Part shown: positions 2,127-16,249 of the stretch, piece by piece
How the letters are laid out: each line of letters begins with the position of its first letter
Position numbering within the stretch: position 1 is the first letter of the stretch
NCBI GenBank assembly: GCA_951812755.1
Contig: OX638329.1
Span: 293,339-357,338, forward strand
Length of the DNA stretch: 64,000 bases
Reading direction: 5' to 3'
Source: an uncultured Latescibacterota bacterium
GTDB taxonomy: Bacteria > Latescibacterota > UBA2968
The notes under the pieces: model-generated
Database searches by the model: none
Seen by the model: the letters and a program-made list of their open reading frames with translations, nothing else
What the model was told of the DNA's origin: nothing
Translations under genes and position numbers: made by a program

Positions 2127-3224
2127 TCACACTTCCTGATCTCTCGTCTCCAAAAACGCATTCAAATCTTCCAACCCCATCCCCGCAATCCCCAACTCGC
2201 GCACGCTGCGCCCTGTTGTCCACCCATCAAAACCCATCACCACAGACGCAATATCCACCAGCCCGCGCATCAAAGGCGCATCCACCCCGTATTGCGCGCC
2301 CACATCGTGCCATGCTGAAAGACCATAAGGAATATCCTCCGTAAGCCATCGGCTCTCAAGCGACCCCGGCGCCTTGAGTTGCGTCAGCATCCGGCTGCCA
2401 TTAATCGCTGCCCACAAATCGCCCTTCGGACCAAAACCCGCGCGATAAAACGCCTCATCAGCCGCCATCAGATCGTACCCCAAAGCCTTTGCAATAGCTC
2501 TGCGCTCAGCATCCACAGCCATAATCGTCTTCGCCACAGACGGAGAAACCCCCTCCTCGTAAAAATAGAACTCCCCGTGAGAATACTCAATCCGCCCCGC
2601 ATTCATCAACACACCCGCGGGATGCACAACCGGATTCATCGCAGACAAACCACACGCCATCACCGTTGGATACGCCTGAATCCCCGGAAAAAAAGGCGAC
2701 AGACGCTCGCGCACCCGCTCTGTATCCGCAGCCGGCAAAACCCCCAAACCCAACCCGGTCACAGTACCCCAAATCGTCGCCGTATCTGGCGCGGTTTTCC
2801 GACACACATAAGGCGCAGTATCCACCTCGGCAAGCGTGACACCTCCCACACCCCGTTCCCTCAGCAGCGTCGCCCATTCCAGCGTACCCAGCGTACCCGG
2901 CATCAACACAACCGTATGCTCCGGTCTCAGATAGGGAGCACACACCAGCGCAAAAGGCTTATGGGCATACGCCGGCACAATCACCAGAATCAGATCCGAG
3001 GCATTCAAAGCCACTTCCATATCCGTGGTCAAACTGTGAACTTCTGCCGCCCCTGTCTCCTCAACGCCCAACAGATGAATCACGCCACTGTCGCGCACCG
3101 GATCGAGCATCTCCCCAAACTCCGGCAATTCGCAAAGCGTAACACCAAAACCCTTCAACGTCAGATTAGCAGCCGCAGCAAACGCCGTATTACCCCCACC
3201 GAGAATTGTAATATGTTCAGACAT
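2127..3224 (-). CDS. NAD(P)-dependent opine dehydrogenase family oxidoreductase
   Basis: N-terminal Rossmann motif ILGGGNTAFAAAANL. Overall collinearity with Arthrobacter opine dehydrogenase (VIVPA.H, LNPG.G.LE..., YFYEEG..PSV, VDAERRAIAKA). Confidence 0.7.
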   Translation of the reverse strand: MSEHITILGGGNTAFAAAANLTLKGFGVTLCELPEFGEMLDPVRDSGVIHLLGVEETGAAEVHSLTTDMEVALNASDLILVIVPAYAHKPFALVCAPYLRPEHTVVLMPGTLGTLEWATLLRERGVGGVTLAEVDTAPYVCRKTAPDTATIWGTVTGLGLGVLPAADTERVRERLSPFFPGIQAYPTVMACGLSAMNPVVHPAGVLMNAGRIEYSHGEFYFYEEGVSPSVAKTIMAVDAERRAIAKALGYDLMAADEAFYRAGFGPKGDLWAAINGSRMLTQLKAPGSLESRWLTEDIPYGLSAWHDVGAQYGVDAPLMRGLVDIASVVMGFDGWTTGRSVRELGIAGMGLEDLNAFLETRDQEV

Positions 3225-3233
3225 AAAAGACCC

Positions 3234-3815
3234 CTACCATGAAAAATCAGCAATCCGAAGCTCAAACCCCGGCAACTGATCAGAAGTATAAACATCGCCC
3301 TCTCCCAATTCCCGAGCCAGATAATCGTGCTCTCCACGCGAAAGAACCGTAACAACCCGCCGAAAGGGATCGACAATGACGTATTCTGCCACACCTATAT
3401 CAAAATATTCTCCACGCTTCAAAATATAATCTCGCTCCTCGCTCCCCCTGCTCACAACCTCAAAAACGAGATCGGGAACCAGATCGTAAATATGGTCAGC
3501 AGACACATCGTCTAAATACACGGCAATATCACCAACCCGATCCGTCTGGTCCGAAGTCCGTATCCAGCCCTCGGGCGCAATGAGTTCAATCATCTCTGAA
3601 TGGGTATGTCTATAGACGTAGAGCCTCTCGAGAATTTCGGAAACCACCTGCATATGCGGCAAATCGCTCGGCTCCATCACAACCAATCTCTTTTCCACGC
3701 GCTCATACCGATAGGGCGCATCCCACTCCGCCTCGGCAAACTCCTCGTCCGTCAGAAACCGCCCCTGATCTTTTAAACCCAATTTCAAGTGTGTTTTTGT
3801 CATAATACTCACCAT
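3234..3815 (-). CDS. Uma2 family (DUF820) PD-(D/E)XK endonuclease
   Basis: About 190 aa. Typical Uma2 layout (..YRYERV.G.LVVM.P....H...V..I...L ... PDLVFEVVS....RDY..K...Y...GV.EY.IVDP). Tandem paralog of the next gene. Confidence 0.7.
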   Translation of the reverse strand: MVSIMTKTHLKLGLKDQGRFLTDEEFAEAEWDAPYRYERVEKRLVVMEPSDLPHMQVVSEILERLYVYRHTHSEMIELIAPEGWIRTSDQTDRVGDIAVYLDDVSADHIYDLVPDLVFEVVSRGSEERDYILKRGEYFDIGVAEYVIVDPFRRVVTVLSRGEHDYLARELGEGDVYTSDQLPGFELRIADFSW

Positions 3816-4402: not shown

Positions 4403-5556
4403 GACTCACTTTTCATCGCCCACTGTTGCTTCTTCTCTCTCATCTCTGCATTCAATTCCACCTCGCGCTGCGGCGTCTGATTCGCGCTATCCTGAACCCA
4501 CTCACCTTCGCGCTTCTCTACAGGCTGTCGCTGTGCCACATTCAGAATCCCAAATGGGCGATGCGGCTCTTTTTGGTACCAGTAAGCCACAGACGCCATC
4601 TCATTCGCCAGATGATTGCCGTGCCCGTGCTCAATCGTCACCTTAATCTCCTTTTCAAACCGCACCGGATTGGTCAAATGAAAAACATAAGACGTCTGAT
4701 ACCCACCCGTATTCCGCTCATAAATCGACGACCCATTCATCAAAAACGCATTATCCTGCATCCCCCACGCCTGATTGAGATAATCCTCGCTACCCGTACC
4801 GTGCAACTCCGGCGGCCACTTGTACCCATCCACCCAGATCATATCATCGCCCTCACCCCACCACGTCCCCTGAAAATTCGTCACCGACAAATTGCACCCA
4901 ATATAATGTCCGACACCCGCCGCCTCCAAAATCACATAATTGCCATCCCACGCCTGCCGCTCAACATTGACAATATTCGCCTCGGGCGTATTGACGCGAA
5001 TTTCGTGCCCCCAACCATCGCACGGATTTTCCCTGTGAAATTGCGCGTGAAAATACGCCGTATCTTCGCCCCAGGGAGCGTCGTACAACTCGTAATCCAC
5101 ATAAAAATATTGCCGATAAGACTCATCGCCCTCATTCGTCACCTCAACGCGCGCAGAGCGATTAAACGGCATAAGCAAATAGCAATTCAGTGCCGCATTG
5201 GGCACAAACTGATTCTCGCGCTGTGCATTGGCAGACGCTGAAAAGGGCAGCGATTGAAAAGACGTTGAAATACCGTGTCCCAAACAAAAGAAATCCCCCA
5301 ACGGCACCTCGACACTCGGATCTTCTTCACCATCCCAAAACATCTTCAAAACCACATTGCGAAAAGCACCATCCCCGCTTTGCGTCATCCAAATATGCGT
5401 AATACAACCCGGTCCCTTGAGATCGGCCAACACGCGCGTCTCTCCCCCCTCAATAACCCATGCATCGCCATTGCGTCCACTGTTATCCCATGACGACGCC
5501 CGCAACGTCCTGGCTCTTTTGGTCTGCGTAAGTGAAGCGAGCATATGAGCGTCCAT
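4399..5556 (-). CDS. DUF2961 family protein (GH172-like beta-jellyroll glycoside hydrolase family)
   Basis: 385 aa with GPGCITHIWMT and WGEGDDMIWVDG motifs characteristic of DUF2961. This is a call from memory and needs HMM confirmation. Confidence 0.5.
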   Translation of the reverse strand: MDAHMLASLTQTKRARTLRASSWDNSGRNGDAWVIEGGETRVLADLKGPGCITHIWMTQSGDGAFRNVVLKMFWDGEEDPSVEVPLGDFFCLGHGISTSFQSLPFSASANAQRENQFVPNAALNCYLLMPFNRSARVEVTNEGDESYRQYFYVDYELYDAPWGEDTAYFHAQFHRENPCDGWGHEIRVNTPEANIVNVERQAWDGNYVILEAAGVGHYIGCNLSVTNFQGTWWGEGDDMIWVDGYKWPPELHGTGSEDYLNQAWGMQDNAFLMNGSSIYERNTGGYQTSYVFHLTNPVRFEKEIKVTIEHGHGNHLANEMASVAYWYQKEPHRPFGILNVAQRQPVEKREGEWVQDSANQTPQREVELNAEMREKKQQWAMKSES

Positions 5557-5918: not shown

Positions 5919-6269
5919 CTTGAAGTTGTTAATGAGAATTTGTTCGATGTCCTCGTTGAGCTATTTTGTCGCGGTCAGACCAAACATGTGCTGAACTTGA
6001 TTCAGTAATCTTTAGCAACTGCTTTTGTTTTTCAAGTTGTTATTTTTTTTCGGGAAAACAAATCCATTGTTCGCAGTCTCTCCCCGTCTCTGCGATTGGG
6101 ATTTCTCACCTAAAGTTTTCCCGATTTGTTATCTAAAAACAAAACCCCACACTCATTTTTCAACCCTCCCCGTTGTGGTTTTTATGCAGCGGTTATGGGT
6201 TTATTTTTTCTGCGAGAACACGCAGGAGCAGGCTCCTATTGGTTCTCGGCTGGTATTTGGGAGGCAGGC

Positions 6270-9161
6270 ATGGCCGAAATAGTTGACGCTTTACTGGAAG
6301 CGGTTGGTTTTGCGGTACGCAAACGCGATGGTCGAATCGTCGATTTTGACCGCGTGCGCATTGAACGCGCGATTGAGGCAGCATTTAGAGCCGAGTTGGG
6401 GTTGTCCAACGATCATTCATTGCCGCCCAAAATTGAAACCGATGTGTCGGGACTCACCGACGCTGTTATTGCTGAAATTGAAGATGAATTGCACGAGCCG
6501 GATGACAGCGTGGATGTCGAACGCATCCAGGACAAAGTCGAAATCCAGTTGATGCGTGCAGGACATTTTGCGGTCGCGCGACGCTACATCGTCTATCGAG
6601 AAGACCACAAAAAAGCCCGCGTACTCAGCGGCCAGGAAGAACCCCAGGACCCCAACGCACCCAAACTCCGCGTACAAACAGCCGATGGCAAGCGCGAACC
6701 CCTGGATGCCAACCGCATTCGCACCGAAGTATTTGCCGTCTGCGATGACGACGTAGATCCTCAAGACCTGCTCAATGAGATATATCGCTCCCTCTACGAC
6801 GACATCAAACCCGACGATATTGAACGCGCCATGATCCTGTCAGCGCGCAGCCGCGTGGAAAAAGAACCCGCCTATAGCAAAGTCGCAATGCGCTTGCTCC
6901 TCAACGTAATCTATCGCCACGCCCTGGGATTCAAACCCGCGCTTGAAGACAGGGACACAGCATGTCAGCAGGGATTTGCAAAATTTATTGAAACGGGCAT
7001 TGAAAACGACCGTTTAGATCCCAAATTGCGCACTTATGATCTGGAGCGTCTATCTGAAGCCTTAAAACCCGAGCGCGATGAAGACTTTGAGTACCTGGGC
7101 GTACAAACGATCTTTGATCGCTACTTGCTCCACGTCAACGAGCGCCGCATTGAAACCCCGCAGTTCTTCTGGATGCGCGTGGCCATGGGCCTGTCCTGGG
7201 ACGAATATGACAAAGAGGCACGCGCCATTCAATTTTACGAAGTACTCTCTTCCTTCCGATTTGTCTCTGCCACGCCCACCCTGTTCAATGCCGGCACCCT
7301 GCATCCGCAGTTGTCCTCGTGTTATCTGTCAACCGCGCAAGATGACCTGGAACACATATTCAAAATGGTATCCGACAATGCCAAATTGTCCAAATGGGCT
7401 GGCGGTCTGGGCAATGACTGGACAAATGTGCGCGCGACAAATTCCTATATCCGCGGCACAAATGGCAAAAGCCAGGGCGTCATTCCATTTTTGAAAGTCG
7501 TGAACGATACCGCAGTTGCCGTCAACCAGGGCGGAAAACGCAAAGGCGCGGTATGCTCCTATCTGGAAACCTGGCACCTGGACATCGAAGATTTTATGGA
7601 ACTGCGCAAAAACACGGGCGATGACCGCCGCCGCACGCACGACATGAACACGGCCAACTGGATCCCCGACCTGTTTATGAAGCGCGTCATGGAAAAGGGA
7701 ACCTGGACTCTGTTCAGCCCAGATGAAGTCCCCGACCTGCACGATTTGTACGGCAAAGCCTTTGAAGAAAAATACCTCGCGTATGAACAAAAAGCCGAAG
7801 CCGGTGAACTGCAACAACATCGCCAGATCGATGCCGTGCAACTGTGGCGAAAAATGTTGTCCATGCTCTTTGAAACCGGGCACCCGTGGATCACATTTAA
7901 AGACCCGTCCAATATCCGCTCTCCGCAGGATCACGCGGGCGTTGTCCACAGCTCGAATTTGTGTACTGAAATTTTGTTGAACACGAGCCGCGAAGAAACC
8001 GCAGTATGCAACCTCGGCTCTGTAAATCTCGTGGCGCATATCACACCCACGGGCCTCAACCGCGAATTGCTGGAAGATACAATATCCACAGCGCTTCGGA
8101 TGCTGGACAACGTAATAGACATCAACTTTTATCCCACAGAAGAAGCCGCCACATCCAACAAACGCCACCGTCCAGTGGGCCTGGGCATCATGGGATTTCA
8201 GGACGCGCTATATCTGTTGAATTTGCCCTACGATTCGCAAGGCGCGGTTGACTTTGCCGACGTGAGCATGGAAATGATCTCGTATTACGCGATCCTATCC
8301 TCAACGCACCTGGCCGAAGAACGCGGCACATATCACTCCTACATCGGTTCAAAATGGGACCGCGGCATATTGCCCATCGATACCTTGAAGATATTGGAAC
8401 AGGAACGGGGGTCGTACTGTGAAGTGGATATGTCCGCGCGCCTGGACTGGAATATAGTGCGCGAGGCAGTCGCCGAACACGGCATGCGAAACAGCAATGT
8501 CATGGCCATTGCCCCAACCGCCACCATATCGAATATCTCGGGCGTGACGCAGTCCATCGAGCCGATGTATCGCAACCTGTATGTAAAAGCAAATCTGTCC
8601 GGTGACTTTACAGTATTAAATCCCTACATGGTCGATGCCCTGAAAGCGCGCGACCTGTGGGACGACCAGATGGTAGATGATCTGAAGTATTTCGATGGCT
8701 CAGTCCAGGAAATTGACCGTGTGCCGCAAGACATAAAAGCACTCTACAAAACCGCATTCGAAGTGGCACCCGAGTGGCTCATCGAATGCGCCAGCCGCCG
8801 ACAAAAATGGATCGACATGGGCCAATCGCTGAATCTGTACATCGCAGCCCCCAGCGGCAAGGCACTGGACGACATGTACAAACTCGCCTGGGTGCGCGGG
8901 CTAAAGACCACGTACTACTTGCGCTCGCTGGCAGCGACCCAGATCGAGAAATCCACCATGGACATCAACAAACGCGGCGTCCAGCCCCGGTGGATGCAGT
9001 CCAAATCCGCTTCGAGCGATGTGCAAGTGCAACGCGAAGATGCACCTGTAGAAACTGACGCGTCTCTCAACGGGCAGGTACACCACGAGACCCCTGCCAC
9101 ACCAGGCCCAACGGCTGCATCCTGCGATATTACAGACGGGACATGTGAGGCGTGTCAGTAA
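6270..9161 (+). CDS. nrdA: Ribonucleoside-diphosphate reductase large (alpha) subunit, class I, with N-terminal ATP-cone
   Basis: ATP-cone ([20 protein letters not shown]). Catalytic motifs [18 protein letters not shown] and [11 protein letters not shown]-terminal redox Cys pair ([12 protein letters not shown]). I place the start at ATG 6270 with GGAGG 6 nt upstream; the track ORF from 6126 is an in-frame upstream extension. Confidence 0.9.
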
Positions 9162-9193
9162 AAAAAGAAAGGGACGTGCTATGAACACGTCCC
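9160..9193 (-). terminator. Intrinsic terminator reading on the minus strand (stem gggacgtg / cacgtccc followed by a T-run on the minus strand)
   Basis: An 8-bp perfect stem at 9171-9178 and 9186-9193 with an A-run at 9160-9170 on the plus strand. It sits between the convergent nrdA and the minus-strand small-protein operon. Confidence 0.5.
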
Positions 9194-9365
9194 GATCACA
9201 ATAAATGACCTTGGCTAAAGACATCTATAATTTGCTACATCCCAAAGGTATTTGGCAAGGCTTCATAGAGGAGATGAATATGCGCTGAAAAGGGGAGCAG
9301 TTTATCTATCTCGGACCATTTTGGAGCAGACCACAATAAATTCTGGTGATTTTGAACGACCTCAC

Positions 9366-9659
9366 CTAATTTTTCGTCTCCGAGCGACTAAAACATCTGA
9401 ATAGACCGACTATAGATACATAGATGATGGCAATACCACCTACAAGAATCGCAAATCTATGGTCACTGAATTCTCCAAACGCTATATCCTCTAAAAAAAG
9501 GACACTATATCCGAGAAATAGTCCGGTATCAATCCCAACACCGATTGCAACAACAGAAACAAGTTTTGGAAGATCAGGAACTTCTTTACGCAAGCCACAG
9601 ACTACACAGTAAATCAAAAGAAACACTATACCGAGAATCAGCCCTCTATTTATTGTCAT
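9366..9659 (-). CDS. Small membrane protein of about 97 aa with 3 predicted TM helices. Last gene of the Panacea-associated operon.
   Basis: Hydrophobic segments LILGIVFLLIYCVVCGL, LVSVVAIGVGIDTGLFLGYSVLFL and FAILVGGIAIIYVSIVGLF. The start overlaps the upstream stop by 4 nt. AT-rich (about 42% GC). Confidence 0.5.
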   Translation of the reverse strand: MTINRGLILGIVFLLIYCVVCGLRKEVPDLPKLVSVVAIGVGIDTGLFLGYSVLFLEDIAFGEFSDHRFAILVGGIAIIYVSIVGLFRCFSRSETKN

Positions 9660-9997
9660 TGCTCTCTACTTTCCACCCAGTATCCGCACGAACCCCCGAT
9701 AATACTTCCAATGACAATCCCTAACATTCCAAAAGAGCTACCAGCCATCAATCCGCCTATAAGTCCGGCGACCGCGAGTGCATGCGAAGCCATAGAAGAG
9801 GTCTTGGATTGTTGAATCTGGTTATCACGGTTGACAGATGCACTTTCTTGATTGAGCTCTTGGGATTCTTTCGGTAATTCCTTAATAGTGGCAAAGACCG
9901 CATCTTCAATAGTGGCAAAGACCGCATCTTCAGTACGAGTTTGAATTGTCTCTCTTGATTGTTCTGGTCGAATATCTAATTTTGAGAGTTCTCCCAT
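9656..9997 (-). CDS. Small protein with a C-terminal glycine-zipper transmembrane domain. Candidate membrane-targeting toxin (PanT-like).
   Basis: The C-terminus reads ALAVAGLIGGLMAGSSFGMLGIVIGSIIGGSCGY, i.e. repeated GxxxG. The N-terminus is polar and carries a duplicated EDAVFATI. The ATG sits directly after the upstream stop (TGATG junction). Confidence 0.5.
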   Translation of the reverse strand: MGELSKLDIRPEQSRETIQTRTEDAVFATIEDAVFATIKELPKESQELNQESASVNRDNQIQQSKTSSMASHALAVAGLIGGLMAGSSFGMLGIVIGSIIGGSCGYWVESREQ

Positions 9998-10543
9998 TTA
10001 TTGACCTCCTATTCTATTCAGGTAGTACTCTCTTATGACCTTATTCGGTATGTGTGCATTTCTAAATCCATTCCTTCTTTTCCATGTTTTATCCCAGGGT
10101 GTGTCTTCTCTATGTGTTATATCAGAAAGCTGTAACCCTGTATATTCTCCGTAAACTTCCCAAATCTTATTTAATAAAGCACTGGGGAATTCATCGTTTG
10201 GATCTATCTTCGGAGTTATAGATTTTGTGTCGAGTTTTCCCCTATCATCATCGTATGAAAACTCAATATCTTTTGCAAACTCTGTTATTGGATCCCCACC
10301 AAAGCGTTTGAAATGATGGTAAAGTGATGGAAATACCGGACCATATTGCCAAGCCTCGGCGAACTCGTCGTCAACTAACGGAAGACCGTCAGACGAGTTA
10401 TCTCTTGCGGTGAAAGCGAGATGATACCCGTGAGCGATATACACAAGTTTTTGTATCATCAATGGTGTTATTTCAACACCATCCTTCTTACCAAGGTCTA
10501 AAAAGTAATTTGCCACAGCAAATGCAGAGTAACCCATATACAT
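9998..10543 (-). CDS. Panacea domain (DUF4065, SocA/PanA-like) protein. Putative antitoxin.
   Basis: N-terminal motif AVANYFLDLGKKDGVEITPLMIQKLVYIAHGYHLA...PLVDDEFAEAWQYGPVFPSLYHHFKRFG matches the DUF4065 signature (VANYFL... KLQKLLYYAqGwhLa .. F.AW.yGPV.p.lY). The likely start is the third codon, ATG at 10537, with AAGGAG 6 nt upstream. Confidence 0.6.
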   Translation of the reverse strand: MYMGYSAFAVANYFLDLGKKDGVEITPLMIQKLVYIAHGYHLAFTARDNSSDGLPLVDDEFAEAWQYGPVFPSLYHHFKRFGGDPITEFAKDIEFSYDDDRGKLDTKSITPKIDPNDEFPSALLNKIWEVYGEYTGLQLSDITHREDTPWDKTWKRRNGFRNAHIPNKVIREYYLNRIGGQ

Positions 10544-10675
10544 CTCCTTGATTACTCTCTCATCAGAACGGGAGAGGGGGATTATTAGATTATATTATTT
10601 ATGTTATTATAGGGAATTGCGATATAATAACATAGAAAGGAAGTGGGATCATGTCAAGGAGTTTAACCAACGTTT

Positions 10676-10725
10676 CTAACGCTTCTAACGCGCCCAGATA
10701 TGCTAACGCTACGAACATACTAACC
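10676..10725. promoter_or_regulatory. Iteron-like direct repeats: CTAACGC repeated 3 times plus one CTAACC. Candidate operator upstream of the Panacea operon.
   Basis: ...ttctaacgcttctaacgcgcccagatatgctaacgctacgaacatactaacc... at 130-190 bp upstream of the minus-strand panA-like start. Confidence 0.35.
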
Positions 10726-10837
10726 TACAAATCTACCGACGCCGTAACACCGGCATCATTGGCTATAGCCTTCTGATTTTTATTCAAAATTAAGTAATGA
10801 AACCACACTATTATGGAATAATTATTCGATTTATTAT

Positions 10838-10871
10838 TCTGCTACTTTAAGATATAACTTAAAGTAGCAGA
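10838..10871 (+). terminator. Perfect 14-bp stem hairpin (tctgctactttaag-atataa-cttaaagtagcaga) in an AT-rich block (about 25% GC), followed by a T-rich tract
   Basis: Read directly from the sequence. There is no plus-strand gene immediately upstream, so the hairpin could instead be a recombination or att-like site at the junction of horizontally acquired segments. Confidence 0.35.
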
Positions 10872-10958
10872 GACAAATTTGGAATTTTTATTTTGCGTAT
10901 GTAGATGGCGGCTTTAAGCAAAGAGGCCGGATGGCTCACAAGGGTAGTCCGGCTTTTC

Positions 10959-11209
10959 CTATGAATCTAACAGGCGCTCAAATTCATCGAGACTGGACAC
11001 CTGAACCGCCGCGCGGAGCAACTGCTTGAGGCGTTGCAAATCTTCGATAGTCGCAATGCGAGTAGATAGGGGGTCTGCTTCGTGCAGATCAAATCTCCAA
11101 CACTTCGAGGATATCTTCAATGGCGCATTGTCTGCCCCTGCTCAATACCTTCTTCAATGCCTTCTCGCTTAAATTGCTGAATAAGGGATGATTCGCGGAT
11201 GATATCCAT
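10959..11209 (-). pseudogene. Frameshifted remnant of a DUF4351 / Rpn-family (PD-(D/E)XK transposase-like) protein C-terminal region
   Basis: Minus-strand reading from ATG (complement 11207-11209, AAGGAGGG SD): MDIIRESSLIQQFKREGIEEGIEQGQTMRH* then, after a frameshift, ..IEDILEVLEI* then, after another frameshift, ..DPLSTRIATIEDLQRLKQLLRAAVQVSSLDEFERLLDS*. The EEGxEQG repeat and the C-terminal tail are typical of DUF4351 proteins. Confidence 0.5.
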
Positions 11210-11257
11210 GATGCCCTCCTTCAAAATAATATCAGAAATAGTTTCGGATATGTCCTC

Positions 11258-11372
11258 AATATGCTGTATTGCACCCTTTTTTTTAACTTGAATTTGTGGA
11301 TCGTCTGTTTGGCGTAAAACAATCTCTGTATATTTTGAACGATAAATGGGCGGTCATGTGAAAGATATGTAC
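11258..11372 (+). repeat. Dispersed intergenic element of about 115-135 bp, copy 1 (CAATATGCTGTATTGC ... TTGTGGATCGTCTGTT ... GTATATTTTGA.CGAT.AAT ... GTGAAAGATATGTAC)
   Basis: Collinear blocks of 16, 16, 11 and 15 bp are shared with 35815-35944, in the same order and orientation. Confidence 0.6.
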
Positions 11373-11467
11373 CACTTGTCCATTTGTCCGCCGCGGTGGT
11401 TCTTGCGTAACATCAGTTATATTCAGGGTAGGTCAGAGTATTTTTTTGATTATAAGTCCTTTTTAGG

Positions 11468-11497
11468 GTTGACAGTACGCGAGTACTTTTACTATAA
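11468..11497 (+). promoter_or_regulatory. Near-consensus sigma70 promoter: TTGACA, an 18-bp spacer, then TATAAT. The spacer contains the perfect 12-bp palindrome GTACGCGAGTAC.
   Basis: ttgacaGTACGCGAGTACttttacTATAAT lies about 240 bp upstream of the ATPase gene at 11735. It faces the plus-strand gene string 11735 to 16249 (ATPase, peptide ORF, ATPase, DUF4276, nrdB). Confidence 0.55.
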
Positions 11498-11646
11498 TAA
11501 GCACGTCTTTACCACAACATTTTGTGCTCTTTTTTCGTTAATTACAAAATATTGTGGCGTAAATAAAAGCACAGCAATAATTTAAAGCGATTCTCCAATC
11601 GCTTTAAGACCTCCCCTCGTCTTCCCCTGACGGCTCCTTACGGTCC

Positions 11647-11724
11647 ATCGCACTGGCGACCTTATTTTTTTTAGCTATATTCGACACAGTCATCTTTTCG
11701 GCAAAATGACCAGATTGCTCATCC
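11647..11724 (+). repeat. Decayed remnant of the 3-prime end of a second ATPase cassette copy, ending in the 27-bp direct repeat (DR1 at 11698-11724)
   Basis: 11647-11667 equals 12428-12448 (inside the gene). 11681-11697 equals 12588-12604 (inside the gene). 11698-11724 equals 12772-12798 (just past the stop). The order and orientation match the intact gene, with about 330 bp of intervening sequence deleted. Confidence 0.6.
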
Positions 11725-11734
11725 GAATTTCACA

Positions 11735-12763
11735 ATGCCTGCTCTTGACAACATTACCATCAAGGGCTTCAAGAGCATCGGTTCTATTGAGAACTTGAAG
11801 CTCGGCCCAATTAACGTCTTGATCGGGCCGAATGGATCGGGCAAATCAAACTTCATTGAGGTCTTCTCCTTCCTGCGCGAAATCACCTCGGATAGGCTGA
11901 AGGATTATGTGAACCGCGCTGGTGGGGCCGACAAAATTCTGCATTTCGGTTCCAGAACAACTGAAGAACTGATCATTGACATCTCATTTGACGACATAGC
12001 AAATCGGTACACGATCAGGTTGCACGCAACGGATACCGACATGCTATATCTGTCTTCAGAGTCTGACCGCTTCTGGAACGCCCACTCGGATTCCGATATC
12101 CGCAACCATCCCGATAGGTGGCGCGTTTATCACTTCCATGACACAAGTTCCACATCGCCAATGCGGAAAACCGCCGATGTAAACGACAACCGTTATTTGC
12201 GATCCGATGCTTCCAACCTATCGGCGTTTCTGTACTACTTGCATGAGACGCATGAAGCGTCATACAACCTGATTCGCCGCACAGTGCAGCAGGTCGCGCC
12301 ATTTTTTGATGATTTTCTCCTCCAGCCGCTGGCACTAAACAACGACAAAATCCACCTCGAATGGCGTCACAAGAAATCCGAAGCGTACTTTGATGCTTCT
12401 TCGCTCTCTGACGGCTCCCTGCGATTTATCGCACTGGCGACCTTATTTCTTCAGCCAGAGCCGCTTCGTCCATCCATTATTCTATTGGACGAGCCAGAAC
12501 TTGGACTACACCCCTATGCGACCGCCATGTTGGCTTCGCTTGTAAAACAGGCATCCGTCAAGACTCAGGTCATTCTTTCGACACAGTCATCTTTGCTAAT
12601 CGATCACTTCCAACCAGAAGATGTGCTCGTGGCTGAACGGGTAGATGGACAAACGCAATTCACAAGGCTCAACGCAATTCGCCTGAAAACATGGTTAGAG
12701 GACTACAGCCTCGGCCAACTCTGGGAAAAAAATGAGATAGGTGGGCGTCCCGTAGTGGAGTAG
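11735..12763 (+). CDS. AAA family ATPase (AAA_21/ABC-type, OLD/AbiL-ATPase-like). Orphan, with no nuclease partner.
   Basis: Walker [17 protein letters not shown]-loop and signature region. Walker B IILLDEPELGLHP. D-loop and H-loop TQVILSTQS. 342 aa. Confidence 0.8.
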   Translation: MPALDNITIKGFKSIGSIENLKLGPINVLIGPNGSGKSNFIEVFSFLREITSDRLKDYVNRAGGADKILHFGSRTTEELIIDISFDDIANRYTIRLHATDTDMLYLSSESDRFWNAHSDSDIRNHPDRWRVYHFHDTSSTSPMRKTADVNDNRYLRSDASNLSAFLYYLHETHEASYNLIRRTVQQVAPFFDDFLLQPLALNNDKIHLEWRHKKSEAYFDASSLSDGSLRFIALATLFLQPEPLRPSIILLDEPELGLHPYATAMLASLVKQASVKTQVILSTQSSLLIDHFQPEDVLVAERVDGQTQFTRLNAIRLKTWLEDYSLGQLWEKNEIGGRPVVE

Positions 12764-12771
12764 ATAGAGAA

Positions 12772-12798
12772 TCGGCAAAATGACCAGATTGCTCATCC
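12772..12798 (+). repeat. 27-bp exact direct repeat (DR2) TCGGCAAAATGACCAGATTGCTCATCC, 9 bp past the ATPase stop. Identical to DR1 at 11698-11724.
   Basis: Exact 27/27 match read from the sequence. The two copies bracket the gene with 10-bp and 9-bp margins. Confidence 0.85.
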
Positions 12799-12972
12799 TT
12801 GCGCTCGCTAAACTGATTAACTGACATTACACACAGTAGTTAAAAAACGAAAAACCAAACTATTACAGGGGATTGAGGTTCGACTCTCCTTGTTTTCTCC
12901 GTTCTTAGTTCCGTTGCTATCTCCTTAAAATGGATCAGTATTAAATCTACGAGTTTCATTAGGGAGGTTAAT

Positions 12973-13074
12973 ATGAAAAATTTGGCTGTTTTTATTAGTG
13001 CGATTTCTGAAATAGCATGTACTATAATATGTACTATCGGAGTTAACATCCTGGGGAGTCCCCTGTCTCAATAA
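12973..13074 (+). CDS. Putative 33-aa hydrophobic Cys-containing peptide (MKNLAVFISAISEIACTIICTIGVNILGSPLSQ)
   Basis: Strong SD AGGGAGG 5 nt upstream of the ATG. The hydrophobic core is long enough for a single TM helix. It lies between the two ATPase genes. The ORF track lists no plus-strand ORF here because it is under 60 aa. Confidence 0.35.
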   Translation: MKNLAVFISAISEIACTIICTIGVNILGSPLSQ

Positions 13075-13134
13075 GCTATTTAACAGGCAATGCCATTCTG
13101 CTTAAAGATGCGTAATGTCAGTGACTAAAAAGAG

Positions 13135-14406
13135 ATGAACCTAACAACTTCACAATACACAGCACCGGCGCGGATCGAGTATTTGAAGGTGCAGAACTTT
13201 CGTGCGTTGCGGGAAGTTGAGTTCAAGGAATTGACACCGCTGACTGTGTTGCTCGGTCCCAATGGCAGCGGGAAATCAACAGTATTTGACGTATTTGCGT
13301 TTCTATCGGAATGCTTTGAGTCGGGTTTGCGTCGCGCCTGGGATCAACGTGGCCGTGCCAAAGAACTGCGGACGCGCGGCAACATCGATCCCGTTGTCAT
13401 CGAACTCAAGTACCGCGAACAGCCGGGCACGCGTCTGATCACTTATCACCTGGCTATTGACGAAGACCGCAACCGCCCCGTTGTCAAGGAGGAATGGTTA
13501 CAATGGCGGCGCGGCCAACACGGCAGACCATTCCGATTTCTCGATTATCGCGAGGGACAGGGCAGAGCGGTCAGCGGTGAGCAACCCGACGAATTGGACA
13601 CGCTTTACTCGGGACCGATCCAATTAGACCCGCGCAACGAGGTACCGCTCCAATCGCCCGACCTGCTGGCAGTCAATGCCCTGGGGCAATTTGCCGATCA
13701 CCCGCGCGTAGCAGCACTGCGCGACTTCATCACCGGATGGCATGTGTCATACCTCTCGGCAGACAGCGCACGAGGCCAGCCCGAAGCAGGACCTCAAGAG
13801 CGACTGTCTAAGAGCGGCGACAACCTTGCCAATGTCATACAGCACCTTGCAGAACAATACCCCGAGCGACTTAACCAGATCTTTGAGGTGCTACGCCAGC
13901 GGGTGCCGCGCATTGAGCGCGTGCTATCAGAAGTCATGCCCGATGGTCGCTTGTTGTTGCAAATTAAGGACGCACCGTTCAGCAACCCGGTGCTGGCGCG
14001 ATTCGCTTCTGATGGCACATTGAAAATACTGGCTTACCTGGTGCTATTATACGACCCCGAACCGCCGCCCTTCATCGGCATCGAAGAGCCGGAAAACTTC
14101 TTGCACCCTCGATTGCTTCCGGAACTTGCCGAAGAATGCCGTGCGGCCTGCGAGCGCACGCAGTTATTGGCGACCACGCATTCGCCATTTTTCCTGAACG
14201 CACTGCGTCCCAAAGAGGTCCGCGTCCTCTGGCGCGACGCGGAGGGGTACACACAAACACGCCGAGTCGCAGATATACCCGGCATACCGGAATTTGTCGA
14301 AGAGGGTGCATATCTTGGCCATCTATGGATGGAAGGATATTTCAATCTGGGAGACCCGCTGGACAGACATGGTGAACCGACTCCTCCTCTGGAGGGACGC
14401 GGGTGA
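13135..14406 (+). CDS. AAA family ATPase (AAA_21 / OLD-family ABC-like ATPase). ATPase component of a two-gene split-OLD / AbiL / PARIS-like module.
   Basis: Walker [17 protein letters not shown] and Walker [14 protein letters not shown]. 423 aa with a long inserted region between the motifs, as in OLD/AriA/GajA-type ATPases. A 4-bp ATGA overlap joins it to the next gene. Confidence 0.8.
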
Positions 14407-15023
14407 TGACGGCACAACATCTGGAATTACTCGTTGAAGAACCCTCAATGGAGGCCTTCTTGCGAGAGCTATTGCCGCGTATGCTGCCTGCGGAATGCAC
14501 ATTCAAAATTCATCCGTTTCAGGGGAAGCCAGACCTGTTGGACAAGTTGCAAAATCGTCTGCGAGCCTATGCAAAATGGTTACCCGACAACTATCGCATC
14601 TTCGTAATCGTTGACCGCGATAACGACAACTGCGAACAATTAAAACAAAAACTTGAAAACATTGCTTCTCGGACTCAACTGCTCACCCGCTCACAGGCCC
14701 GTAGTCGTCTCTGGCAACTGGTCAACCGTATCGCCATTGAAGAACTGGAGGCATGGTACTTTGGTGACTGGCAGGCGGTGTGTAATGCCTATCCGAGGGT
14801 TTCAAAAAAAATTCCAAATCAGGCACGCTATCGCCACCCCGATGCAATCCGCGGAGGCACATGGGAAGCTTTCGAACGCATCCTGAAGCGACATGGCTAC
14901 TTTAAAACTGGACTACGCAAAGTGGAGGCTGCCAGAGACGTTGGCATTCATATTGATTCTAATCGTAGCCGTTCGCACAGTTTTGTGAAATTCCGCGAAG
15001 CCATCATTGAGGCAACTGCTTGA
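14403..15023 (+). CDS. DUF4276 family protein (Toprim-like predicted nuclease partner of the ATPase)
   Basis: 206 aa. The N-terminal [19 protein letters not shown] (acidic EE after a beta-strand) and the later [11 protein letters not shown] (DxD) fit a Toprim-like E...DxD arrangement. The size and the ATPase-then-DUF4276 gene order are typical of this family. The assignment is from memory. Confidence 0.55.
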
Positions 15024-15061
15024 ACCATTATTGTATCTCATTTTTTTAAAGGAGTTGTAAT

Positions 15062-16249
15062 ATGTCTAAGCTCATATTTGAAGACGAAGACGTTGAAAGT
15101 CAAGCAAATATGGACTACAAGGATGGTGGTCACGCGGAGCAAAACGGCATTCATGCGTCCGTTGAAGCGGATAATACTGACGTACCCTCCGCGCTGTGTT
15201 GTGGTGCCACTGGCGAGGCGTATGACCTGACCAGGCGCATCAACCCGGAAGACAAGCGATTGCTCAACTGCCGGCAGGTGGATGTAAACCAGTTGATGCC
15301 CCTCAAATACGAATGGGCATGGGAACACTATCTCAACGGATGTGCCAATCACTGGATGCCGACAGAAGTACCGATGCAGCGCGACATAGAACTCTGGCGT
15401 TCAAATGCCCTGAACGACGCCGAGCGAAAAGTCATCTTGAGAAACCTCGGATTCTTCAGCACGGGCGAAAGCCTCGTCGGTAACAACATCGTACTCGCCA
15501 TCTTCAAACACATCACAAACTCCGAAGCGCGACAATACCTCTTGCGCCAGGCATTTGAAGAAGCCATACACACCCACACATTCCACTACATCGTCGAATC
15601 CCTGGGCCTGAACGCACGCGAAGTATTCAACATGTATCACGAAGTCTCGTCCATCGAAGGCAAAGACAAATTCGTGATGGAACTAACCGAAGACGTGTTA
15701 GATCCCAACTTCTCAACACAAAGCATTGAAGGCATGCAGAAATTCGTGAAAAATCTCGTCGGATTTTACGTCATCATGGAAGGCATATTCTTTTACAGCG
15801 GCTTTGTCATGATCCTCTCCTTCCATCGGCAAAACCGCATGACCGGCATTGGCGAACAATTCCAGTACATCTTGCGCGACGAGACCATTCATCTGAATTT
15901 TGGCATTGACTTAATCAACACCATCAAATCGGAAAACCCAGAAATCTGGACAACGGAACTGCAACGCGACATCTACGACCTCATCCACGAAGCCGTGGAA
16001 TACGAAGTAATCTATGCACGGGATTGTGTGCCCGACGGCGTACTGGGCCTCAATGAAGACTTATTCCGCGAATACGTGCAATTCATCGCCGACCGTCGGT
16101 TGGAACGAATCGGCCTGCAAAGCGTATATGGATCAAAGAATCCTTTCCCGTGGATGGGAGAAACCATTGACATCGCAAAAGAAAAGAACTTCTTTGAAAC
16201 GCGCGTAACAGATTATCAAAGCGCGGGATCCTTACAGTGGGATGATTAA
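15062..16249 (+). CDS. nrdB: Ribonucleoside-diphosphate reductase small (beta) subunit, class I
   Basis: [16 protein letters not shown] and the di-iron ligand helices ([30 protein letters not shown]). AAAGGAG SD. Only 38 bp separate it from the DUF4276 stop. Confidence 0.9.

Follow-up and report, generated by a model that had tools for sequence, protein, structure and literature searches.

A stand-alone Panacea-domain gene that is followed by two genes for small membrane proteins raises the question of which of the two encodes the toxin that the Panacea protein would neutralise, and what the other one contributes. Such a trio lies in a 64,000-nt stretch of DNA (the window) from an uncultured Latescibacterota bacterium (assembly GCA_951812755.1, contig OX638329.1, positions 293,339 to 357,338). 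A preliminary description of this DNA had proposed a PanAT-type toxin-antitoxin (TA) system in which PanA neutralises both small proteins as independent membrane toxins and autoregulates its own expression through an upstream array of GCGTTAG iterons. We compared the trio with about 100 fetched loci that carry relatives of its genes (labelled L001 to L099 below). The reading that we favour, with modest confidence, is that of a mobile PanAT cassette of ~1.5 kb, whose second gene encodes a chimeric glycine-zipper toxin and whose third gene encodes an immunity partner with three transmembrane (TM) helices (the 3TM protein). The PanAT family is already known; new here is a PanAT whose toxin appears to be a chimera of docking peptide and glycine zipper, accompanied by the zipper's own 3TM partner.

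The three open reading frames (ORFs) are tightly packed on the minus strand, at the coordinates originally given for them (Table 1). The ratio of non-synonymous to synonymous substitution rates (dN/dS) among relatives lies between 0.03 and 0.4 for all three, indicating purifying selection, and hence all three genes are real. The junction between the first two had been given as TGATG; the actual arrangement is a TAA stop codon followed at once by ATG, with a spacer of 0 nt, whereas the 4-nt overlap (ATGA) described between the second and third genes is indeed present. The start of PanA is probably the second ATG, at 10537, which gives a protein of 179 rather than 181 aa, because the Shine-Dalgarno sequence is too close to the first ATG and most close homologues are 179 aa long.

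The Panacea signature (DUF4065) recognised by eye in the first protein is borne out by the Pfam model SocA_Panacea (PF13274), which it matches with E=2.1e-17 and 64.5 bits (cut-off 25.7) over profile positions 1-112 of 113. The Pfam scan detected no DNA-binding domain of the helix-turn-helix (HTH) type, so that PanA is a bare Panacea domain. We counted 556 homologues and recovered 80 genome loci with PanA proteins of 40-97% identity, most of which have, downstream of PanA and overlapping it, an ORF of ~100-180 aa whose product is charged at the N-terminus and carries one to three TM helices at the C-terminus. E. coli phage PhiR47_1 has an annotated PanA/PanT pair: its PanA shares 35% identity with the window protein, and its PanT matches at the C-terminus one common class of partners, which has the pattern VLIALITTTT..VGL..IV..YLFP. 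PanTs of E. coli and Bartonella apis, in which a charged N-terminal region precedes C-terminal TM helices, form pores, cause membrane depolarisation and permeabilisation, and are purified in complex with PanA (Kurata et al. 2022, PMC8832971). In the Bartonella pair, modelling and mutagenesis showed that the bare Panacea domain contacts the N-terminal unstructured region of the toxin and also the short helix preceding its TM segment (Ernits et al. 2023, PMC10440598). The spacer of 0 nt and the conservation of the trio across genomes and contexts (L001, L005, L006, L007, L008, L010, L088, L098) are the neighbourhood expected of a PanAT, and homology together with synteny places the window system in the membrane-toxin branch of the family. 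We regard this PanAT assignment as fairly secure. As a separate observation, several metagenome-assembled genomes (MAGs) carry two or three paralogous loci of PanA and a membrane toxin (L028/L045; L053/L057; L017/L030/L042), the genomes including a Latescibacterota chromosome, a Paracoccaceae chromosome and an Albidovulum bin; the recurrent taxa in the PanA match list resemble a marine or host-associated community.

The second gene stands directly after PanA in L001-L010, L088 and L098. In its product the first ~70 residues are hydrophilic, and the C-terminal glycine zipper reported earlier is present as two GxxxGxxxGxxxG runs (G78-82-86-90 and G93-97-101-105). This layout, a charged N-terminus with C-terminal TM helices, is that of the membrane PanTs and matches both the sister PanTs and the E. 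coli phage PanT. The TM domain itself shows no homology to that of the T3/T12 toxins, the glycine zipper being unlike the class with the YLFP-type pattern cited above. Related hairpins with the tail ...GG.(C/F)GY...(S/K)R occur in L006, L088, L090 and L094. Weak matches were obtained to glycine-zipper-type models (C19orf12, Gly-zipper_Omp), to the PADLOC model LeoB, and to OsmB and YiaD; with 13.4 bits for PF13488 (threshold 25) and 19.3 for C19orf12 (threshold 30), the resemblance to glycine-zipper families is at the level of the motif only. A perfect 24-nt tandem duplication (9884-9932) doubles the motif EDAVFATI, giving a toxin of 113 aa in the window versus 105 aa in L007, L008 and L098. 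An independent duplication (RVEDAA twice) is seen at the corresponding motif in L089.

The composition of the toxin gene becomes apparent when close relatives are compared. Between the window and L006, the DNA is 96-100% identical through PanA and the first ~20 toxin codons, ~45-60% identical over the rest of the toxin and the whole of the third gene, and then again >90% identical in the flank; at the protein level PanA is 97%, the toxin 53% and the third protein 36% identical, the last two being 86 and 102 aa long in L006. As identity collapses at about codon 20 and stays low through the third gene, the toxin's membrane domain was swapped jointly with the third gene, behind a PanA and docking segment that stayed constant. 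Among more distant PanA relatives, those of L086 (80%) and L089 (71%) are followed by another toxin class and no third gene, and that of L088 (67%) by genes for a glycine-zipper toxin and, with the identical 4-nt overlap, for a divergent 3TM protein. The N-terminal motifs of the window toxin (Table 1) are found in toxins with unrelated C-terminal membrane modules (L089, L085, L086): the window toxin reads MGELSKLDIRPEQ...EDAVFATI, that of L089, with a different TM class, MSEPPKLDIQPEP...VEDAAFANE, and that of L085, with a third class, ...PPPKLDIRSIE. Of 43 non-redundant partners, 21 have a looser motif, (D/E/K)(L/F)xx(I/V), within residues 1-18, versus 2.7±1.6 in composition-matched shuffles; at residues 19-36 it occurs in five. 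Taken together, these sequence comparisons indicate that the toxin is a chimera: its presumed docking segment at the N-terminus is common to PanTs with unrelated membrane domains, and its zipper hairpin derives, jointly with the 3TM protein, from a distinct two-gene module that is widespread and is found without PanA as well. If so, the locus would be a natural, sequence-resolved case of the hyperpromiscuous Panacea domain acquiring toxins, in which the docking segment is kept constant and the warhead is swapped at a breakpoint near codon 20.

The third protein, described earlier as having three TM helices, shows three hydrophobic helices by hydropathy, and AlphaFold2 models it as a three-helix bundle (H5-23, H30-55, H58-90) with a pLDDT (predicted local distance difference test) of 83.6 and a pTM (predicted template modelling score) of 0.67. 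As the first loop is basic (+3) and the second acidic (-4), an N-out/C-in topology is predicted. An exhaustive phmmer search yielded 45 cluster representatives of ~95-150 aa that match the query over nearly its full length and have a common motif pattern. No curated family in Pfam, NCBIfam, PHROGs or PADLOC corresponds to them, and they thus represent an uncharacterised family. When a hidden Markov model (HMM) of this family was run against every ORF of the ~100 loci, it matched only where a glycine-zipper peptide is encoded immediately upstream; the gene is absent from ~70 PanA loci that carry other toxin types. Conversely, PanA-less pairs of zipper peptide and 3TM protein are found in L090 (76 + 100 aa), L093, L094 (86 + 127 aa), L095 (partial) and L099 (55 + 112 aa), and in a JGI contig encoding the family member P0149, which has an upstream ORF of 42 aa and a TIR_2 neighbour. 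The L094 pair likewise lies just downstream of a TIR_2 gene (pair and neighbour within 1070-2884), so that this adjacency recurs in two unrelated contigs. The zipper peptides of the PanA-less pairs are devoid of the N-terminal docking motifs, as is the 97-aa protein itself, which begins directly with a TM helix. The third gene thus follows the glycine zipper, not PanA. This argues against the earlier view of the 97-aa protein as a second toxin neutralised by PanA, while the other part of that proposal, a Panacea protein in a conserved, coupled operon with a PanT-like membrane protein, stands. No conserved block emerged from broad alignments of the 3TM family. When metagenomes were scanned with a narrower alignment, the sole locus retrieved was L098, nearly identical to that of the window; viral contigs gave no match. 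A supposed fusion of zipper and 3TM protein, P0145 (153 aa; L093, 76-537), was rejected: two in-frame ORFs are split there by a TAG that had been read as Gln, and because of this stop codon P0145 is two genes rather than a Rosetta-stone fusion, unless TAG is recoded on this contig (689 nt, 34.5% GC). The L099 pair adjoins what appears by eye to be the tail of a VapC/PIN-type gene.

The genomic setting shows the trio to be a mobile accessory element within a defence island. It lies between nrdA (ribonucleotide reductase large subunit, 6126-9161) and nrdB (small subunit, 15062-16249), in a stretch of low GC content (~40% versus ~53% in the flanks). The gap between the two genes (9162-15061) is an accessory island of ~5.9 kb that holds the PanA trio together with HEC-01-type genes, and it can therefore be regarded as a defence-island hotspot; L086 occupies the same hotspot without the HEC-01 genes. 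The closest genomes are MAGs of Candidatus Latescibacterota. While the locus with a 97% identical PanA (L006) is syntenic with the window, L007, with a PanA of 96% identity, carries the cassette at another genomic site, and its similarity to the window is confined to ~9202-10731. This delimits a mobile unit of ~1.5 kb, with the promoter at one end and the other end shortly before the terminator-like hairpin that follows the third gene. The trio is intact across different genomic contexts (L001, L002, L005, L007, L088). No tRNA or integrase gene was found flanking the cassette.

Based on these observations and on the published PanATs, the following mechanism may be proposed. By binding to the conserved segment at the N-terminus of the toxin, PanA would keep the latter in the cytoplasm, a role suggested by the conservation of this segment in the family and by the contacts mapped in the related Bartonella system. 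When PanA is lost or inactivated, the two-helix glycine-zipper hairpin would insert into the inner membrane and depolarise or permeabilise it, by analogy with the validated membrane PanTs and other glycine-zipper toxins. The third protein might bind the zipper hairpin within the bilayer and thereby buffer toxin molecules that escape PanA, resulting in neutralisation in two compartments. This role of an intramembrane immunity partner, a second antidote beside PanA, is put forward tentatively, and we would give it slightly less than even weight. It is favoured because the self-contained two-gene copies need an antidote, and because the glycine-zipper toxins that have been studied best, CdzC/D and EsxX, are neutralised in other bacteria by the co-encoded membrane proteins CdzI and ExiCD. 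Extending the argument, the zipper and the 3TM protein might constitute a previously unrecognised, free-standing toxin/immunity (or effector) family that can be plugged into different cytoplasmic controllers, being fused here to a PanA-docking peptide of ~20-40 aa and standing elsewhere beside TIR-domain proteins; PanTs in general would then be composed of a docking peptide and an exchangeable membrane warhead that recombine at the junction. We consider this possibility less likely than not. At the least, an uncharacterised two-gene membrane module has been identified (a zipper peptide with a 3TM protein of ~100 aa), and this may represent either a novel pair of toxin and immunity protein or an effector in defence.

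The locus L009 bears directly on the role of the third gene. It has cleanly lost this gene with PanA and an intact toxin gene retained, which implies that the 3TM protein is not the sole antidote. The same deletion is equally compatible with the main competing reading, a co-effector role, in which the zipper and the 3TM protein would jointly form the pore, or the 3TM protein would serve as receptor or insertase for the hairpin, with PanA as the sole antidote and the pair as a plug-in effector for sensors such as PanA or TIR proteins. The deletion in L009 is viable, and the dN/dS of its toxin relative to that of L008 (1.74, from very few substitutions) hints at relaxed constraint. Strict co-occurrence and joint exchange of the two membrane genes, as well as the translational coupling implied by their ATGA overlap, are also in keeping with a joint effector, and the adjacency of two PanA-less pairs to TIR_2 genes favours it slightly. 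We nevertheless consider it rather unlikely. Free-standing copies such as those of L090 and L099 would then carry a lethal effector without a visible antidote, the ~70 related PanTs whose TM domains are of other types manage without a partner, and the known glycine-zipper toxins CdzC/D and EsxX are neutralised, not helped, by the membrane protein encoded with them (PMC5380434, PMC12744356).

It is also conceivable that the zipper and the 3TM protein form a benign small membrane complex, for instance a stress-related one, to which PanA is linked as a chaperone or regulator. Neither small protein has a family assignment, glycine-zipper small proteins include harmless lipoproteins, with OsmB and YiaD among the weak matches, and ten predicted PanAT systems were non-toxic when tried in E. 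coli (PMC10440598). Such a complex would hardly be expected to be as patchy, mobile and low in GC as this cassette is, or to reside in a defence island beside HEC-01 systems; warhead exchange in the manner of a cassette is a typical feature of polymorphism in toxin/immunity systems, and validated toxin partners are known for this PanA subfamily (PMC8832971). A benign function therefore seems improbable.

Several points nevertheless weigh against a PanA-docked zipper toxin with its own immunity protein. The toxin has no significant match to curated families in Pfam, NCBIfam, PHROGs or PADLOC, and a Foldseek structure search with the third protein found nothing (best E >1), so that association and analogy are the whole basis of the role given to the latter. 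With PanA present, an immunity protein that acts stoichiometrically looks superfluous, and the system could fire only once this protein had been overwhelmed. The N-terminal motif was chosen after the fact, and the PanA-less contexts inspected number only seven, one of them without DNA.

The closest known systems are the membrane PanATs of Shiga toxin-producing E. coli (STEC) O31 (cluster T3) and of Bartonella apis/choladocola (T12/D11) (PMC8832971, PMC10440598). Like the window cassette, they consist of a stand-alone Panacea gene immediately upstream of a gene for a protein with a charged N-terminus and a C-terminal TM domain, the N-terminal region being the probable contact site. They differ in the membrane domain, since the window toxin has a hairpin of two glycine zippers with no relation to the T3-type TM pair, and in that the window cassette has an obligatory 3TM gene that is exchanged together with the toxin C-terminus; the accessory third genes described for PanATs encode enzymes, helicases, proteases as well as nucleases, all of them rare (PMC8832971). 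In Caulobacter, the glycine-zipper peptides CdzC and CdzD (~85 aa) form a contact-dependent bacteriocin that is neutralised by CdzI; this small inner-membrane protein is predicted to have three TM domains, is the product of the last gene of the cdzCDI operon and is indispensable to producers (PMC5380434). Compared by architecture alone, gene order and sizes are as in the zipper-3TM pairs of the window, L090, L094 and L099. The Cdz peptides are exported by an adjacent type I secretion system (cdzAB) and kill neighbouring cells, whereas no secretion genes and no pair of ABC transporter and membrane fusion protein lie beside the window cassette, whose neighbours are nrdA and HEC-01-type ATPases; moreover the window system has a cytoplasmic PanA attached. 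In S. aureus, the membrane-depolarising glycine-zipper toxin EsxX is neutralised in the cytoplasm by the soluble ExiAB and in the membrane by the polytopic proteins ExiCD (PMC12744356), a logic of two compartments resembling that proposed for the window trio. EsxX, a large LXG effector secreted by the type VII system, has no sequence relationship to the window toxin, and ExiB binds the zipper itself, whereas PanA would bind the N-terminal segment. Should the proposed mechanism hold, two-compartment neutralisation of glycine-zipper toxins, known for this secreted effector, would extend to intracellular TA systems.

SocAB is a type VI TA system in which the Panacea-domain protein SocA acts as a ClpXP adaptor. 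The window system has the Panacea domain in common with it, but is not a member: the sole NCBIfam match of PanA, SocA_antitoxin (NF047745), scores 101.7 bits, far below the equivalog cut-off of 190, and the partner is a membrane protein rather than a SocB-like one. Tripartite TA systems include TAC (toxin-antitoxin-chaperone) and SpoIISABC. Like these, the window trio comprises three small co-transcribed genes with a second protein that may modulate neutralisation, but it has no SecB-like chaperone or homology to them, and its third component is an integral membrane protein tied to the membrane domain of the toxin.

Table 1. Features of the PanA cassette and of the surrounding nrdA-nrdB gap (window coordinates).
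Feature	Coordinates	Strand	Basis and remarks
PanA, stand-alone Panacea-domain candidate antitoxin (181-aa ORF)	9998-10543	-	PF13274 match, homologues, dN/dS 0.07-0.27
PanT-like toxin candidate, 113 aa	9656-9997	-	hydrophilic N-terminal region, C-terminal glycine-zipper hairpin; dN/dS 0.22-0.37
Toxin N-terminal module, codons 1-38, presumed PanA-docking segment	9884-9997	-	motifs KLDI(R/H/Q)PE and EDAxFAxI
Glycine-zipper helical hairpin, residues 72-107, presumed membrane-inserting part	9677-9784	-	two GxxxGxxxGxxxG runs
Third gene, 97-aa three-helix inner-membrane protein	9366-9659	-	ATGA overlap, family, AlphaFold2 model, dN/dS 0.03-0.31
Promoter-like site	10629-10657	-	TTGACA (10652-10657), 17 nt, TATGTT (10629-10634); 10/12 consensus match
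Conserved block of the 5' untranslated region (5'UTR)	10544-10591	-	small hairpin (CUCUC...GAGAG) and AAGGAG Shine-Dalgarno sequence
GCGTTAG(AA) repeat tract	10667-10726	-	2.6 tandem 9-bp units, one spaced exact and one degenerate copy
Terminator-like hairpin	9171-9193	-	10-bp stem and T-run; between cassette and convergent nrdA; conserved in L008, L009
Orphan HEC-01A-like AAA_21 ATPase	11735-12763		nrdA-nrdB gap
Complete HEC-01 pair	13135-15023		ATPase 13135-14406 and DUF4276 protein 14403-15023; nrdA-nrdB gap

Upstream of PanA, the promoter-like site is nearly invariant in L005, L006, L007 and L086, and the 5'UTR block in all copies of the cassette, including those with a different promoter. 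The fold of the 5'UTR hairpin is not significant (z=-0.59), and a comparison with Rfam gave chance-level matches only. The region beyond the promoter had been described as carrying four copies of a 7-bp direct repeat, a plausible autoregulatory operator. In fact it has three exact copies of GCGTTAG (10676-82, 10685-91, 10703-09) and degenerate ones at 10667-73 (ACGTTGG) and 10720-26 (AGGTTAG), the true unit being the 9-bp tandem GCGTTAGAA. Across the window the heptamer occurs 5 times, no more often than the 6.25 expected, and its clustering is non-random, since three of the five copies fall within 34 bp directly upstream of TTGACA-17-TATGTT, with the tract ending 9 nt short of TTGACA. Its copy number varies widely: in L007, the array at 3208-3374, directly upstream of the corresponding promoter, comprises 18.6 tandem GCGTTAGAA units with 99% identity, L086 and L098 have three exact copies arranged as in the window, L006 has one, and L005 degenerate copies only, while in L001, L002, L008, L009, L010 and L088 the upstream region is different and devoid of repeats. 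The repeat is thus a variable-number tandem repeat with 0-19 copies among orthologous cassettes, and not a fixed operator; an effect of repeat number on promoter strength is possible.

These data also bear on the scheme of two independent membrane toxins with a PanA that autoregulates through the iterons. That the three exact repeats abut the -35 box would accord with it, as would the ~90% conservation of the repeat-bearing upstream region between the window and L086 (promoter/5'UTR divergence K≈0.10) at a synonymous divergence of PanA of pS=0.42, a contrast for which either a recent exchange or selection acting on the regulatory sequence could account. The features of an operator or iteron array, conserved number and position of the repeats and a DNA-binding regulator, are not seen here: the upstream region is unrelated in half of the cassettes, a DNA-binding domain is missing from PanA, and it has been argued that Panacea is not a transcriptional autoregulator (PMC10440598). 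As the 97-aa protein moreover has no docking segment and tracks the zipper, this scheme appears highly improbable. A further candidate operator, the perfect 12-nt inverted repeat TATGTTATTATA / TATAATAACATA (10600-10611 / 10623-10634) that overlaps the -10 box, was rejected as it is imperfect in L005, L006, L007 and L086; it is probably an AT-rich coincidence.

Some further features were observed around the cassette. In L086, a 41-nt direct repeat (3723-3763 and 5005-5045) flanks the PanAT pair, and one copy of this element is found in the window upstream of the promoter, beside a 34-nt palindrome (10776-10826, 10838-10871); it may be a recombination site for cassette exchange. L086 also has an intact gene for a 298-aa protein upstream of PanA (2759-3655), which belongs to no Pfam or PADLOC family and of which the window retains a degraded remnant (10886-11422), the 53-aa ORF at 10959-11120 corresponding to its C-terminus. 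The orphan HEC-01A-like ATPase gene is bracketed by a perfect 27-nt direct repeat (11698-11724 and 12772-12798), and a second repeat of 41 nt with 88% identity is found at 11627-11667 and 12408-12448; these repeats may be the scar of an insertion or duplication. In L098, a 112-aa ORF on the opposite strand (2803-3141) is inserted between the cassette and nrdA, and its product (YVYVL...IVYIGIT...) resembles, by the appearance of its sequence, a small GIY-YIG-type protein.

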